Source: Peribolospora baueri (lineage: Eukaryota). From it: DNA of 20,000 bases. The position numbers and the translations under genes were made by a program. The notes beneath the pieces were generated by a model. The model ran no database searches and was not told the DNA's origin. It saw only the letters and a list, made by a program, of their open reading frames with translations. Position 1 is the stretch's first letter; every line of letters starts with the position of its first letter. Positions 1 through 10,828 of this stretch are shown here, in pieces. The stretch is taken from contig JAMDHS010000106.1 in assembly GCA_029717555.1 (NCBI GenBank), positions 45,473 to 65,472 of the forward strand. Reading direction: 5' to 3'.

Positions 1-2045
1 TCCAGCTCGAGTGGCGGCCTGCCCACGTCCAATACTCAAACATGGCTCTATACGGTGGCTTGGTCGTCGGAGCCGCGTTCTGGGGGTTGACCGCTGACTT
101 CATAGGGTAAGTCCTTCCCCTCCCGAGACAAACTGCATTCTGACCTCTGGTTTCCGGAGTGATGTCTGACTGGAAAGCCACCGCCTGACACCCACCTTTC
201 CTCGTCGCGACAGCCGCAAGGTATCATTTTCCCTGACACTCCTACTCTCTTCCATATTCGGAGTGTTGGTGTCTGTTGCTACGAACTTCAACGGTTTCTC
301 AGTCATAATCTTCTTCCTGGGAATTGCCGTAGGTGGCAACCTGGTGCGTGATGAAACATCCTTTGGCTCCAGCATCGATAGCTACACATCTGATTCGCCC
401 CATACGTCCCTCTCCGTCATCTTGGTTTTATAGCCAGTGGATGGGGCGCTCTTCCTGGAGTTCCTTCCGGCCAGCAAGCAATGGTCGCTCGTCTTCCTGA
501 GCACATGGTGGAGCCTCGGCGCCCTGGTGTCCGCCTTGGTGGCTTGGCCTTTCATGGAGAACTTTGTGAGTTTTCATCCACACCGTGTCTATCCGCCATG
601 TATGCTTTCTGCGCCTGTGTTGAACAAGCTCGCTTTTCTTATTGTTCCTCATCTGTGCCCTTTGACAGTCCTGCATGCAGTCCGACCAGTCTTGTTCCCC
701 AAAAGACAATCTCGGCTGGCGCTTCACTTTCATGACCCTTGGGCTGCTCACACTGCTCATATGGATTGCCCGCTTCTGGCTCTTCCCTATTCCTGAGTCC
801 CCCAAGTTCCTCGTCGGGAAAGGTCGAGACAGCGAAGCAGTCGAAGTCATCGCCACCGTCGCCCGGCAAAATGGAACAAAGACCTCACTGACGCTGAAGA
901 AGATGCAAAAGGTAGCCGGAGACGAGTGGCTGATTGTAGACTCGGAGGACAAGCTCCATGCCCATGAGGATGAGGATGCAGCGAGTCCCAAGTCGCCATC
1001 GGGCACGGCACCAGAGATGGCTTTTGACGAGGCGGTGGATTCGGCGCCAATAAGCAAGATGGAGATTCTCAAGCGCAGCTTGTCCACCTTCAGTTTTGCA
1101 CACTTCAAAGGTCTCTTTGGAACAACCCGGATGGCGGTCAACACCACACTGCTCTTCGTCATTTGGGGTAAGTCGGTCTCCTGATATACCTCGGTGACGC
1201 GCCCTCTTCCGGAGACTAAGGTTTCGACTTTCATTTCCGCACAGCTCTTATTGGCTTGGCATACCCTCTTTATAACGCCTTCATTCTCATCTACCTCCAG
1301 AAGCTTGGTGACGACAATGGAAACGGAAGACTTAAGGCATACTGGCAATATGTTATCATTACCATAGCCAGCCTGCCAGGCAGTTTCATTGCTAGCTACC
1401 TTGTGAGTACCACTGCTCTTTCCTATCTTCTCGCTATGGCAGCTACGTCTACGTCGCTAACCGACTATTTTTGCTATACGCACTTGCAAGGTCGAGACAC
1501 GCAGCTTCGGCCGGAAAGGTACGCTGGCGCTCTTCACAGGCTGCACCAGTATCTTTTTCTTCCTCTTCACCATTGCCCGAACGCCAACTACCATCGTCGT
1601 CTTCAACTGCTTAAGCGCCTTTGCCCAGCAGGGCATGTACGGCGTGTGAGTATTTGCTGCGCAGTTTTTGAGTCCCACGCAATCTGAGCCCCGAGTACAA
1701 GGGACTTCTAGTTGAAAAGTACGCCTTCTGCCACTCTTGCCGACCAGGCTTTACGCCATGACCTTCGAAGCGCTGCCTACAAGACATCGAGGCACTGGCG
1801 AAGGCGTTGCCATGGCCATCAATCGGATCATGGGTATGATGGCGTCGTTGATAAGCACCAAGGCGGGTTTGGACCCTACGACGTGAGTTCGGTTGGCAAA
1901 GTTCGTGAAATGAGTGACCCCTGGTTGACGGGCATCCATCCTTTGCCTTCCCAGCCCAGTATATATTTCCGCTTCTGTCATCATGGCCGCAGCCTTCCTA
2001 GCAGTCCTCCTGCCGTACGACGGCAGAGGCAAGCCTGCGCTGTAA
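1..2045 (+). CDS. MFS transporter, SV2/SVOP-like fungal family; 5' end lies outside the window. Exons <1-106, 214-343, 434-565, 669-1167, 1245-1402, 1491-1645, 1748-1882, 1955-2045
   Basis: Seven GT..AG introns (72-107 nt) join in phase. The spliced product reads GLVVGAAFWGLTADFIG|RK (MFS motif A), GGNL|PVDGALFLEFLP, GWRF..PESPKFL, LAYPLYNAF, FGRKGTL, MYGV|LYAMTFEALPTRHRGTG and ends LLPYDGRGKPAL*. Many hydrophobic segments. Substrate unknown. Confidence 0.93.
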
Positions 2046-5802: not shown

Positions 5803-7968
5803 ATGGCGAGAGGAAGAGGACGATCAGGGCGCGAGCGCGGAGAGAAACCCGGAAAGGGGAAGGGGAGGCATGAGCCGATTTACGATACACACGATGAGGC
5901 GCTTGAGGGTGGGATCGAGGCGGAGGAGAAAGGGGAGAGGTGGGCGATCGGGGCCAAGGTGAGCAGGCCGTCTTCGTCTCTCTATGGATTAGGAGCATGG
6001 TCACAGCGGTGTGGACAAGGGATGTGACCATTTCCGCGGCCGTGTTGACGCATTTCTCTGCTTGCTGATCGCAGGCGCGCCGGTTTTACGAGAAGGCCTA
6101 CGAGTTGTACCGGCGAGCAGCTTCGTTCTCGGAGACGCCGGACAGCCTCTACAATGCGTGAGCGACTCGGTTTCCTGAACTGGAAAAGGATGAGGAGCGA
6201 ACCAGCATGTGTACATGCGACTAACTAAACCTGCCTCGACACTGCACATAAACATCGCAGCGCTCGCGTCCTCTACCTCCTCTCCACGGCCTTCTACCTC
6301 GCCCCATCCGGTCTCTCTACCTTGAAGGAGTCTATTTTCCTCTACCGTCGCGCCTCATCTTCCCTCCTATCCACCACCCTCTCCGAACCTTCCAGTCAGG
6401 CGACACAGGGACAAGCAGGTGCTCCCACAGAGTTTGGAACCGACATTACCTTCAACCTAGCTACGGCTCTTCAGACGCTCGGCGAGTGGATGGACGAGCT
6501 CGAGTTGAGGGAAATGAACACAGTAGATTCGGGTTTTGGCTTGACACCGAAGGAGCTTTTGCTAGAAGCTGCGAGGCTGTTTGAGCAGGTCGCAAGGGAC
6601 CAATACGCGTTGGTCACGTTTGACCGTGCGCCAGAGTCGGACTGTTCAGGAGGGAGCGACGACGGCATGTCCGAGATCTCTCCAGATACGGATTACAGTC
6701 ATCAAACTTCTGGCGCCGAGCCGAACGTTGGCTCTTCTTCGTCCGGTCCGACGGCTACGGCTTGGGAATCGACCCTCACTACACCGTCCACCATCCTTGA
6801 CACGCTGCTGTCCCTCCACTCTTGCGCTTCGTCGATATTGTCACTCGCGAACTCTCCCAGTGAGCTCAGCCAAGCTAAGGAGGCGGCGGCGACGGCCTTT
6901 GCGAGCGTGCAAGACCTCTACTCTGCGTATCCTCATTTGCAAGCTGAGCGCAGCGCGGAGGTCTCTCTGGCTGGAGAGACATGGCGGATCGCCGAAGCAT
7001 CGAAGGGCATCTCTCTCGGCCTAGCGGCCTCTGAGGACGCTTGGACGACCTTACGACAGGAGCAAAGCGCCGCTTTGGACCAGTTGGCCGCGATCGCAGC
7101 GTCTTCCGCCCCGGCGCTTGCTAGTTCCGCTCCGGGACAGCAGAACGACGCGGCTAAGGAGGCGAAGGAGTTTGCAATTCGCGTGCACTGTGAGCTCGGA
7201 GACGCGCGATCCACCGTCGCTTGGTCGATCTTCCGCCGAGCTCTTCAGTCTTCCCTCCAAAACACCCCCCCTCAAGAGGCGGACCTGGCGCTTGTGTGGA
7301 CGCTCGCCTCCCAATCCGTGCAAGCATACAACGCCGCCCTACAAGCCACGTCCGCCTCGCCCTCTTCGTCCACCCTCGTTGTCGGCTCATCCGGAACCAC
7401 GCCGACCTCACTCACCCGTTCCTCCATCCTCCGCTCCCTCTCCGTCGTATCCATCCTCCGCGCCCACCCACTCCTCGCGAACCTCCCCAAGGCGCAGGGC
7501 AAAATGGCGAGCCTGCTGGAAAACGCAAAAGTGTACGCGCGCAGGGCGTGCGAAGAGAGCGGGTGCGCTTGGATGTTCCGTGCGGGGACCGACTTTCCTT
7601 CTCATCAGATGGTCGCGCCCGCGTCTTTGTTTGCTGCGGGTCCTGAACCTCTGCGAGCGGCGTGCGATTCCGTCTTCCACCTCTTACGGGCCTACAGTTT
7701 CACCGAAGTGACCTCGGTCCCGAACGCCGACCCTGGAGCGGCTGGTGCTCCGCAACAGGGGACGGAAGTTCGGACGCTCGCACGGGTGCTCATGGCGATT
7801 TCGAAGGCGGAAGAAGCGGGCAGGTTAGCTGCGGGTCCGGGAGGGATTAGGAGGTGGGTAGAGGAGAGGGAGGAAGAGGAGGGCGAGTGGAGTGCGAGGG
7901 AGAGGGCATGGTGGAGTGCGCTGGCTGAGAGCGTCGAGGTAGATTTGCAGCGGCCTCCATCCGCTTGA
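5803..7968 (+). CDS. Conserved uncharacterised fungal helical-repeat (TPR-like) protein, UPF0656-like, about 648 aa. Exons 5803-5958, 6075-6157, 6261-7968
   Basis: Two GTGAGC..CAG introns join in phase to the long ORF. The spliced N-terminus is basic, then YDTHDEALEGGIEAEEKGERWAIGAK|ARRFYEKAYELY..DSLYNA|ARVLY, and later DITFNLATALQTLGE..LEAARLFEQV. From memory this resembles the S. pombe C926.02/UPF0656 family; not verified by search. Confidence 0.85.
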
Positions 7969-8552
7969 GTGACGTAGCCTGGGCGATGGATCGCGTCATC
8001 CCATACAAACAGCAGCGTCTTCGCTGACGGCGGCTGTGTCCTAAAGTGCCTCTGGAACCCACGTCTGCTTACGACCTGGACAGGTTGCTTGCCTGCCTAG
8101 TGTGTCGGACGCCTAGTCTCGTGATCGATCGCACGACGACGACGGGGTCCGCTCATCGGGCTCTGGGAGGCGTCGGTGGTCCGTGCGCGCATATTCATAC
8201 CCATACCCACTCCCAGCGGCAGCGGCTGCCAGCAAGAAGGCTGCCCCGTCCATGTACTCACTCGAGCATATATAGCACAGTCCGTGGGTGCGATTTGTCG
8301 GAATGAGCGGCGACAGAGCGTGAACGAAAGGGTGCTGGAGATATTTTTTTTTTTCGTGGCGAGCGCACCGGGTAGGTTGTAAGTGTCCGTTCGGTCCGGT
8401 CGTCGTGGCCACCATCCGCTCTCTGCCGCTTCGTTGTTCATCCGTCTGTCCCCCGTGGTCGCCAAGTGTCCGTCGTCCATATCACAGGAGGTGATCCTCG
8501 CTCCTCATCAAACGCCTGCCCCTCGCTTACTCTTTACCTTTGCCCCGCGCAG

Positions 8553-9788
8553 TCCAGACAAAACCAAGGTCTGGGTCCGTCTCCGACCCCGATTTGGCAA
8601 GTCCCGAGACGTCCGCGAACAGAAGAGCACGACACAACTGACGGATGGATGGGTACCCTTGTCCCACAACTCGATTACGGTCTATCCTTTGTGGAATCGA
8701 TACCGGCCATGCAAAGGAGGTTCCCGCTCGCTTTTGAATGCTACGAACCTGTTCCATTCGCTTGACTTTGTTTGTTCTCTTGCCGGCGTCCCCGTAACGA
8801 TGCCCACGGCGACTAGGCTCGCAGAGCGGGGCCGCCACTCGGAAGCACACGCCTTGCTGACCCGACTCACTTCGCGGACCCGTCCTCGGGGACAGCCGTC
8901 CGTCGTTGGCTGACCGTTTGTTTGGCTGCTCGGAAACCGCGTCGGCTTTTTCGGCAAGCTGGCTCGGTCCTGCGTGGATATATCCAGCGGAGATCACTCC
9001 GTTGGCGATACGCTCTCAGGCAGCGTCCTTGGCCACAGCCTCGGTGAGCCTTTGTCCCCGTCAGCCGTGAGATGATGTCGTAAATTTGACGACAAGGAAC
9101 GATTCTTGCCGTCGTGCCTTGCTCGTCGCGTAGGTGACTGACGACGGCGTCGACCGTATTGTCCCGCCCGCCTACCTTTGTCTGACGTCGGCAATGATGG
9201 ACGTTGCGTCGAAACCCGTTCATTCAAACGCCGGACGCGATAGGTTTGGATTTGGAACTTTCTTGTCGCGGTGAGCGCAAACGGTGACGCTGGCGGAGGA
9301 GCCGGGTCGCGCCCGGGAAGGTAAGGAGGAGGGGCACTGACAGACGGCGGCTCTCGCAGGAAATCACGCCGACAGCGCTGGCAAAGATTCATAACCGCTA
9401 CTTTATCGTCTTGGCCGGTGAGTGAGCGTCCGTCCCTCTCCCTTCCTTCCGTCCATCTAACCAAAACCTGACGTAATGAACGATTGAATGATGATGGGAC
9501 GCGACGCGACGCGACGCGACAAATGCATGCAATGCCTCATCCACCCCCACAACCTTCCTCCTATACCCCGAGACAGCGGGGCTAAAGCTGGAAGAGGTGG
9601 ACGAGCTGTTTGTGGATGGGGAGGTGCGCCTACGTCGGTCGTCTTGCGCCCGCTGCGGCCTGGACGAGGACGAGGACGGCGACGGCGTTGGCATCGTTGT
9701 GAGTGGCGGGCGAGGGGAGGGAGATTTGGAGGCGGTGGGGACGCGGGAAGGGAGTGTGGGGGTGGGAAGAGAGGATGTCAAGGTTTAG
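8553..9788 (+). pseudogene. Decayed sugar porter (Sugar_tr, STL1-like) pseudogene. Exon remnants at about 8568-8600, 8670-8741, 8817-8877, 8942-9043, 9244-9270, 9360-9417 and 9526-9788
   Basis: Collinear family motifs: GLG..PTPIWQ; LDYGLSFVES..QRRFPLAFE (cf. IDYG..WRFPIAFQ); LAERGRHSEAHALLTRL (follows PESPRW); FSASWLGPAWIYPAEITPLAIRSQAASLATAS|VWIWNFLVA|EITPTALAKIHNRYFIVLA|..CNASSTPTTFLLYPETAGLKLEEVDELF (PETKG motif). Introns 9044-9243 and 9271-9359 are intact. Other acceptors are lost, about TM7-9 is missing, and no start is visible. Confidence 0.88.
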
Positions 9789-9820
9789 CTAGCTAGGGCG
9801 GGCGACGCGGACGTGGGTCG

Positions 9821-9887
9821 TGAATGAATGGATGAATGAATGAATGAATGAATGGTTGAATGGTTGGAAGGATGGATGAATGGATGG
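9821..9887. repeat. Imperfect (GAAT/GGAT)n microsatellite
   Basis: TGAATGAATGGATGAATGAATGAATGAATGAATGG... read directly. Confidence 0.85.
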
Positions 9888-10828
9888 AAAAATGACCGCC
9901 CACGTCGTTCGTCATCTGAGAGACAAGCCTTCCGTCCACGACACCGACACCGACACGACACCGACGCACGAAGTCTTTTCCTTGGAGACGTCGTCGTCGT
10001 CTGTCCCCCTTGACGCATGCATGTCCGACCCGACCACAAACATGTACATACAGCGTGCATTTTGTGGACTATACGGACGGTCTCACCGTTGGCCCGACTC
10101 TTACCGTACCGTCGCTGAACAAGCGACGAGCGACGCTGGAGCCAAGCTAAGCTGTCCGTACGCCTGGAACCCGTGCACACGCGCGACGATAAATGAAAAC
10201 GGCCGACCGGGCCCGCTAGAGGCCCGACGACGCTGACCGTCCCGTCCCAGGCGCCGCGACGCAGAGCAGAGTTCGTGGCTCAGACAGATGAGGTAAGACA
10301 GCGCAGCTGTCGTTTAGCTCTGGCGTCGCCCACAGAGCGAAGAACATGACGGACGGACAACCACACACACACATACGAGCGCGCACGCAAAGCTTAGGGG
10401 TGAACGGGTGCACAAATACCGGGTTGCCGAGCGCCAGTCGGCAATAACATGGCCAGAGGGGAAAAGAGGGGAGGGAACGGAAAAGAAGGATTCGAACGAA
10501 CCGAACGGACCAAAATGGGACGGAGGGGGACGACGACCGAGGGCAGTGAAATAGGGATCTGGCCGAAACGAAGAGAACAAGACCAGCAAGTTGAATCGTT
10601 AAGTCGAAAGGAGGGAGAGCCGACCGAAGGAAAGCAAGCGAAGCATCGTCATCGTCATCATCACCGTTGGGACGGAGGTGCCATCGGAGATGGACGAGAC
10701 GGGCGGGAGGGAGAATGTGAAGGGGTATAGGGTATCGTCGCAAGGGGCCGGCGACGAAGAAGAGTTACCCCGAACGGGTGACGGTGGTTGGCCTTGGACG
10801 TCCTCCGTAAGACCCAGAGAGAGGGCGC

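Follow-up and report, generated by a model that had tools for sequence, protein, structure and literature searches.

Lafontaine and Dujon (2010, PMC2876123) described 871 pseudogenes in eight yeasts, most of them with a paralogue and with a bias towards transporters, including 11 sugar-transporter cases in D. hansenii. In the parts of that survey cited here, most yeast pseudogenes are decayed duplicates, and a pseudogene is defined by an in-frame stop, a frameshift or a truncation of >30% relative to the cognate gene. A basidiomycete example is the R. toruloides sugar-porter pair RTO4_9841/RTO4_9846, duplicates among which one copy has been proposed as a pseudogene, as far as the cited text of the preprint goes (bioRxiv 10.1101/675652).

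The locus described here is another decayed duplicate of the kind reported by Lafontaine and Dujon. As in the cases cited from that survey, a degraded copy truncated by DNA deletion has a living paralogue in the same genome. Unlike them, it lies in an intron-rich fungus (a basidiomycete by nearest homologues), so that the fate of the introns can be read, and its divergence from the paralogue (third-position identity 60/136) exceeds that of the recent duplicates typical of the survey (PMC2876123). The R. toruloides case is likewise a basidiomycete sugar-porter duplicate pair with one suggested pseudogene; in the cited text, however, that pair is recent, LAT-1-related and transcribed from both copies (bioRxiv 10.1101/675652).

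The nearest relatives outside this genome are basidiomycete PF00083 porters annotated as "general substrate transporter" or "putative STL1", such as Calocera cornea KZT59577.1 (P0003), and further proteins from Sistotremastrum (P0005), Leucosporidium (P0007) and Rhodotorula toruloides (P0009 and P0014). They are 46-51% identical to the intact sister gene over its length and ~52-57% identical to the pseudogene blocks. The STL1 names are automatic annotations, and any orthology to Stl1, the yeast glycerol symporter, is putative. Keyword searches of open-access text found no literature on the locus or the subfamily.

A broken sugar-porter gene and its intact sister

The window, the whole stretch of 20,000 nucleotides that was analysed, is C7:45473-65472 of a 22.7-Mb genome in 668 contigs, and both the richness of its genes in introns and their closest protein relatives suggest a basidiomycete fungus. 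The pseudogene lies on the plus strand between a left-hand frame of 579 codons (6229-7968, plus strand) and a convergent glycoside hydrolase gene (Pfam PF11790, 10829-11917). The left neighbour had been called "UPF0656-like" in the earlier note; a Pfam search assigned it to no Pfam family, a word-based search found no homologue, and its look-alikes are unnamed fungal clusters (0.93), with one weaker cluster carrying TPR_17 in 23% of its members. A second MFS-type transporter gene occupies ~170-1690 (plus strand) of the window, where the exon frame 666-1184 matches PF00083 at 26.7 bits; it is distant from the pseudogene's family (34% over 53 aa).

When the genome was searched as DNA with 8200-9900, two hits on contig C572 were obtained, and otherwise simple repeats. 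The C572 gene (G000:C572:1420-4379, minus strand, read 4379-1420) has 15 exons, including a predicted microexon of 5 nt (2752-2748), encodes 534 aa without a stop and is intact by its gene model, with 14/14 introns GT-AG. Region 8670-9788 of the window matches exons 6, 8 (start), 11 (end) and 12-15 of this paralogue in order. We aligned 14 of the 15 paralogue exons (the 5-nt exon 9 was left out) to 7970-10600 and compared the scores with 100 dinucleotide shuffles. Exons 6, 8, 12, 13, 14 and 15 scored above 100/100 shuffles in the DNA and the protein alignments, and exon 11 in the DNA alignment alone, giving seven of the 14 tested exons, all collinear; exons 1-5 and 7 did not exceed the shuffles in this alignment. 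A DNA match to exon 10 at 8471-8619 (4/100 shuffles as good) was rejected as out of order.

Proteins from outside the genome gave the same picture. By tblastn (E<=0.01), 114 of 120 PF00083 proteins matched 8300-9900, compared with no protein in 19/20 shuffled controls and one in the remaining control, and a profile of 30 homologues found six ordered segments. Single fragments of the pseudogene stay below the Pfam cut-off (14.4 and 12.4 bits vs 22.3); the assignment to PF00083 is one of descent, by collinear homology to Sugar_tr proteins. Sugar porters carry the loop motifs PESPR after TM6, ExxxxxxR at TM10-11 and PET after TM12. In the pseudogene PAEITPLAIR and PET are intact, and PESP has become PASP, followed by a stop. 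The A-motifs of sugar porters follow TM2 and TM8 according to the part of the source cited (PMC8154325); here the TM8-9 motif falls within a deletion, and 12 TM helices in one frame are absent. Only 136 of 534 codons are recognisable in frame, ~75% being missing or unreadable. Judged by its homologues, the ancestral gene most likely encoded a sugar porter with 12 TM helices that worked as an importer in the plasma membrane.

Region 8670-9788 is a broken, unprocessed sugar-porter pseudogene and encodes no working transporter. Its in-frame stops (8763, 8795 and 8911), the frameshifts where introns 6, 7 and 11 stood and the ~75% of codons that are missing or unreadable are each a mark of pseudogenes in the yeast survey (PMC2876123, in the part cited). 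Introns 5, 12, 13 and 14 persist at the paralogue's positions and at full length, introns 6, 7 and 11 have collapsed, and introns 8-10 lie in the deletion. The earlier note had proposed an unprocessed sugar-porter pseudogene from seven peptide fragments, and had suggested a Sugar_tr protein search; the collinear exons, retained introns, frameshifts, stops and lost acceptors, all seen again in read-derived contigs, bear the proposal out, and six of the seven fragments are real, collinear matches to the paralogue. For annotation, the gap is not a neutral spacer, yet it should not be called a gene.

Exon-intron map and the undetectable 5' half

The 5' limit of the remnant is tentative. A pyrimidine tract with CAG at 8550-8552 marks a possible 3' end of intron 4 (8530-8552), a reading of the bare sequence that carries no statistical support. 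What remains of exon 5 (8553-8574, start tentative) is at most 22 nt, compared with 77 nt in the paralogue, and its true end is the last four letters, CTGG (8571-8574). Intron 5 (8575-8669; 95 nt, 82 nt in the paralogue) keeps its GT donor. Its acceptor is now CAA, as is that before exon 12, and exon 15 has none. Exon 6 (8670-8741, the fragment LDYG..RFPLAF) corresponds to paralogue residues 161-184 with 16/24 identical and with W176 changed to R. In the next stretch (8742-8802) intron 6 has collapsed and exon 7 is eroded: C184 to P199 spans 41 nt vs 42 nt in the spliced paralogue, with TGA at 8763-8765 in the frame of exon 6 and TAA at 8795-8797. The earlier note had overlooked the exon 7 trace (8768-8802), which is weak (as protein, 30/1000 slot shuffles as good; as DNA not significant, 643/1000). 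The letters 8803-8816, ending in CTAG, are probably the last 14 nt of intron 7, which in the paralogue has 90 nt. Next comes the beginning of exon 8 (8817-8874, residues 205-223, 14/19 identical), with the fragment LAERGRHSEA at 8818-8874.

At 8875-8890 lies the junction of the large central deletion that had been placed near here from the sequence: paralogue residues ~224-366 are gone, equivalent to ~730 nt of paralogue DNA, and a related organism (organism B, below) carries 187 letters in place of the 10 found here. The loss covers the central loop and about TM7-TM9, the TM numbers being inferred from hydropathy and general MFS topology. The 3' half of exon 11, the TM10 region, was also overlooked by the earlier note; it spans ~8880-8946, contains TGA at 8911-8913 and is above slot shuffles as DNA (0/1000 as good), though not as protein. 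A remnant of 10-11 nt (8947-8957) with the acceptor CAA stands for intron 11. Alternatively, these letters are coding, F-S-A-(S/G) as in outgroups, and no intron was ever there; the frame shifts under either reading. Introns 6, 7 and 11 have thus shrunk to ~0-7, 14 and 10 nt, each causing a frameshift relative to the spliced paralogue.

Exon 12 (8958-9043, residues 392-419, 22/28 identical) has an intact donor and holds WIYPAEITPLAIRS..ATAS at 8960-9043; it is followed by intron 12 (9044-9243, GT..AG, 200 nt vs 92 nt in the paralogue). The 27-nt exon noticed earlier at 9244-9270 agrees in length and phase with paralogue exon 13, with both splice sites (tag before it, gt after it) intact, 6/9 residues identical and WIWNFLVA at 9247-9270. 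Intron 13 (9271-9359, GT..CAG) has 89 nt, as in the paralogue, and exon 14 (9360-9417, residues 429-447, 15/19 identical; EITP..RYFIV at 9360-9416) again has both splice sites intact. Intron 14 (9418 to approximately 9525) keeps its donor and has lost its acceptor, there being no AG from 9430 until 9572. A CGACG-type simple repeat (9495-9520) occupies this intron end, with a 5-nt length difference in organism B. The remnant of exon 15 (9526-9788) is open to TAG 9786-9788; its core, residues 450-486, has 25/37 identical and includes PETAGLKLEEVDELF (in 9531-9641). TM12 in this exon is now polar, SSTPTT replacing VQVPIL. A GAAT-type simple repeat lies directly past the stop (9816-9892).

Upstream of exon 6 the earlier claims did not hold. 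PIWQ (8589-8600), taken as the first sugar-porter fragment, is a chance match; exon 5 ends at 8574, a GT donor stands at 8575 and PIWQ thus belongs to intron 5, while the equivalent motif of the paralogue is PMYVAE. Organism B rejoins the window at 8571, and 26 of its letters together with CTGG 8571-8574 agree at 23/30 positions with the end of paralogue exon 5 (by eye). The GRR and VIL..QT traces at 8390-8520 are at chance level (GRR occurs in 240/500 shuffles). When 7970-8669 was compared pairwise with exons 1-5 as DNA and as protein, and scanned with an HMM and a profile, none of these exons rose above shuffles (39-295/300 shuffles as good; with the profile 10-59/60), and a start codon and N-terminal exons were undetectable in the pseudogene. 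An exon 4 trace at 8481-8537 (6/19 identical, in a frame other than that of VIL..QT) was matched by 39/300 and 10-16/60 shuffles and was rejected. The 5' half, described before as much more eroded, is therefore undetectable and not visibly eroded. At least part of it has been deleted, since only 584 nt separate the upstream stop from 8553, compared with 798 nt for paralogue exons 1-4 and their introns. We also considered a single deletion at 8562-8570, confined to this genome, that took away the entire 5' half. At 8561-8571 both runs of organism B leave the window for at least 252 + 26 letters and their contigs break; the first 30 of these extra letters are absent from this genome, which fits both gene and insertion. 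The single deletion is not established, because the at least 252 extra letters could be either.

Read-derived contigs, organism B and the course of decay

Four sequencing runs from one study were used, two of which (X1 and X2) are possibly the source of this assembly and two of which (X3 and X4) represent organism B. X1 and X2 each gave one contig across 7300-9815, with 0 differences from the assembly, at depths of 115 and 90. The earlier note had named raw reads as a way to expose the lesions as assembly errors; the read-derived contigs reproduce them. That the gene is intact and its lesions are errors of assembly is hardly conceivable: the draft is fragmented, at 668 contigs, yet the two read-derived assemblies agree with it at even depth, the missing exons are on no alternative contig, a search of the genome with paralogue exon 10 found no second close copy, and organism B shows the same broken structure. 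As X1 and X2 may have been the source of the assembly and all four runs belong to one study, they exclude assembly error and do not amount to independent sampling.

Organism B is ~97-98% identical to this genome; the same gene is broken there, and among the differences listed some lesions are different. It keeps CAG at 8957 (both runs) and at 8669 (X3), as well as W176 and Y211 as in the paralogue. Its own lesions include deletions of 3 nt at 9008 and 1 nt at 9012 in exon 12 (both runs) and of 4 nt at 9418 in the donor region of exon 14. A 67-nt deletion (8616-8684) that removes the start of exon 6 is present in X4 and absent from X3, and a 2-nt deletion at 8978 is present in X3 and absent from X4; the pseudogene thus varies between organism B samples. 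At 9641-9716, 74 nt of the last-exon tail are replaced in organism B by 73 unalignable letters, with flanks ~97% alike.

Compared with X3, the pseudogene differs by substitutions at 39/1061 nt and the upstream intergenic DNA at 14/593 (P = 0.19). The last 669 nt of the left neighbour gene differ at 10 (P = 0.007), a weak control in which 6/10 changes are nonsynonymous. Such divergence is what continuing neutral decay would give. Because the regions of the collapsed introns 6, 7 and 11 align in both organisms, the gene probably died before they split.

Related genomes offered no intact copy at the site, which had been proposed as a check: that of organism B is broken too, and 38/38 metagenome loci around relatives of the right neighbour were without a sugar porter or the left neighbour. 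These loci are distant (best segments 28-64% identical, many on short contigs). Both the site of origin and the exact set of shared lesions are accordingly inferred, no genome seen having an intact orthologue at the site. A 36-nt piece of the C572 sister, with matching flanks, also occurs in organism B.

Two rival accounts of the remnant bear on these lesions. It is very unlikely that exons 12-15 are retained for a short functional peptide or RNA. In this genome they contain no stop, and donor 12 through donor 14 make up five intact splice sites; the exon 15 acceptor, however, is lost, TM12 has become polar, exon 12 of organism B is shorter by a net 4 nt and its exon 14 donor region has lost another 4 nt, and divergence from organism B is not below that of intergenic DNA. 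A semi-processed origin, in which cDNA of a partly or wrongly spliced transcript recombined with the gene, imprecisely removed introns 6, 7 and 11 and may have killed it, is quite unlikely. Such an event would account for the near-complete loss of these three introns with adjoining exon ends seemingly kept for the most part while four others stay at full length, and organism B aligns across the junctions almost gap-free. The junctions are nevertheless uncertain by several nt, the remnants were anchored on acceptors, which introduces an ascertainment bias, and the sequence at the intron 11 site also allows the reading that no intron ever stood there. Large deletions unrelated to introns (in exon 5 and of residues 224-366) occurred in the same stretch. 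In fission yeasts 656/660 intron losses fit a model of reverse transcription, whereas genomic deletion is given as the cause of the few imprecise losses, as stated in the part of that study cited (PMC3629103). Three collapsed beside four whole introns are explained more simply by DNA deletion.

Origin of the two copies and the question of lost uptake

Pseudogene and C572 gene share 98 identical aa over 136 codons (72%). In these codons 107, 120 and 60 of 136 first, second and third positions are identical, pS is 0.67 (95% 0.56-0.78) and pN 0.17 (0.12-0.23), corresponding to dS ~1.7 and dN ~0.2. With pS near saturation and pN low, the copy was not dead from birth and was functional for the greater part of its existence. 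In a FastTree phylogeny of 31 sequences (29 of the 120 homologues, 136-codon columns) the two are sisters with support 0.999 and branches of 0.29 (pseudogene) vs 0.11, and the pair sits among Calocera, Sistotremastrum, Leucosporidium and Rhodotorula proteins. Seven residues are common to both copies and absent from 29/29 outgroups. A faster rate in the pseudogene was significant with one of five outgroups in relative-rate tests (P = 0.007; others 0.08-0.65).

Comparison of 9 kb around the paralogue with the window and 10 kb upstream of it found no flank homology; the duplication was therefore dispersed, and a segmental or whole-genome duplication was rejected. A protein search with the exon 15 core found the C572 gene at 68% and the next protein at 43%, and own-genome searches of this draft assembly revealed no closer parent copy. 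A search of longer proteins for homologues of paralogue exon 8 gave 0/120 candidates.

The window copy is an old, once-working dispersed duplicate that died recently. We put at about 0.9 the probability that it is a duplicated, unprocessed MFS (PF00083) pseudogene, both copies having long been active before this one was inactivated and left to neutral decay. An intron-rich basidiomycete gene of the STL1-like group was duplicated to an unlinked site, as the sister relationship, the common intron positions and the unrelated flanks show. Both copies then remained functional for long, for which near-saturated synonymous sites and a conserved protein are indirect evidence. The window copy was inactivated probably before the split from organism B, judging by the collapsed intron 6, 7 and 11 regions common to both, and has since decayed neutrally, mainly by DNA deletions and point mutations that are partly lineage-specific.

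The pseudogene had also been read as recording the loss of sugar or polyol uptake. The sister survives, so such a loss is not demonstrated. With a functional paralogue left in the genome the pseudogene is duplicated, not unitary, and the C572 gene probably covers at least part of the function. Still, the copies are old and both evolved under purifying selection, so a specialised role may have gone. That the two had specialised on different substrates and that a real uptake ability disappeared with the window copy is possible, at clearly less than even odds, and is compatible with the preferred reading of an old duplicate that died. For it speak the age of the copies (dS ~1.7) and the constraint on both, which usually mean distinct roles, and a TM11 position that is N in 28/30 aligned proteins, C in the sister and V in the pseudogene. 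Against it stand the intact sister itself and at least 17 sugar-porter Pfam matches on 8 contigs that remain in the genome; moreover, the dead copy has lost its TM7 binding helix, so that its specificity is unreadable.

The living sister is the more useful lead, as its predicted binding residues are non-canonical. In TM7 it reads MMKLTGVD in place of QQxTGxN, that is MK for QQ and D for N, and in TM11 it has C for N, which sets it apart from the STL1-annotated relatives. The TM7 reading depends in part on the predicted 5-nt microexon. The replaced TM7 residues of QQxTGxN and the TM11 N are conserved in the outgroups examined, and for TM7 GLUT1 and STP10 agree (alignment via P0003); the solved structures nearest to the homologue P0003 are STP10, GLUT1/3 and XylE. 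These TM7 and TM11 positions are presumably the sugar-binding positions. A bolder reading joins the two stories: dead gene and sister would form a small group of sugar porters whose binding site has been remodelled (QQ to MK and N to D in TM7, and C or V for N in TM11) and whose cargo is something other than neutral sugars; of its two long-maintained members, one would have died when three introns were imprecisely lost through a cDNA template. We consider this quite unlikely. If true, two species would preserve here a dated trace of intron loss with frameshifts, normally hidden by selection, and of a lost unusual transport activity. Taken alone, the pseudogene is of little importance, as sugar-transporter copies are routinely born and lost in fungi; it offers a neat case of decay whose direction can be read with the help of a sister taxon.

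Next to the 3' end of the sister gene, contig C572 carries a long tandem repeat (1-981) that is open on both strands and runs off the contig start. On the plus strand it reads as 290 codons rich in Glu, Ala and Thr.
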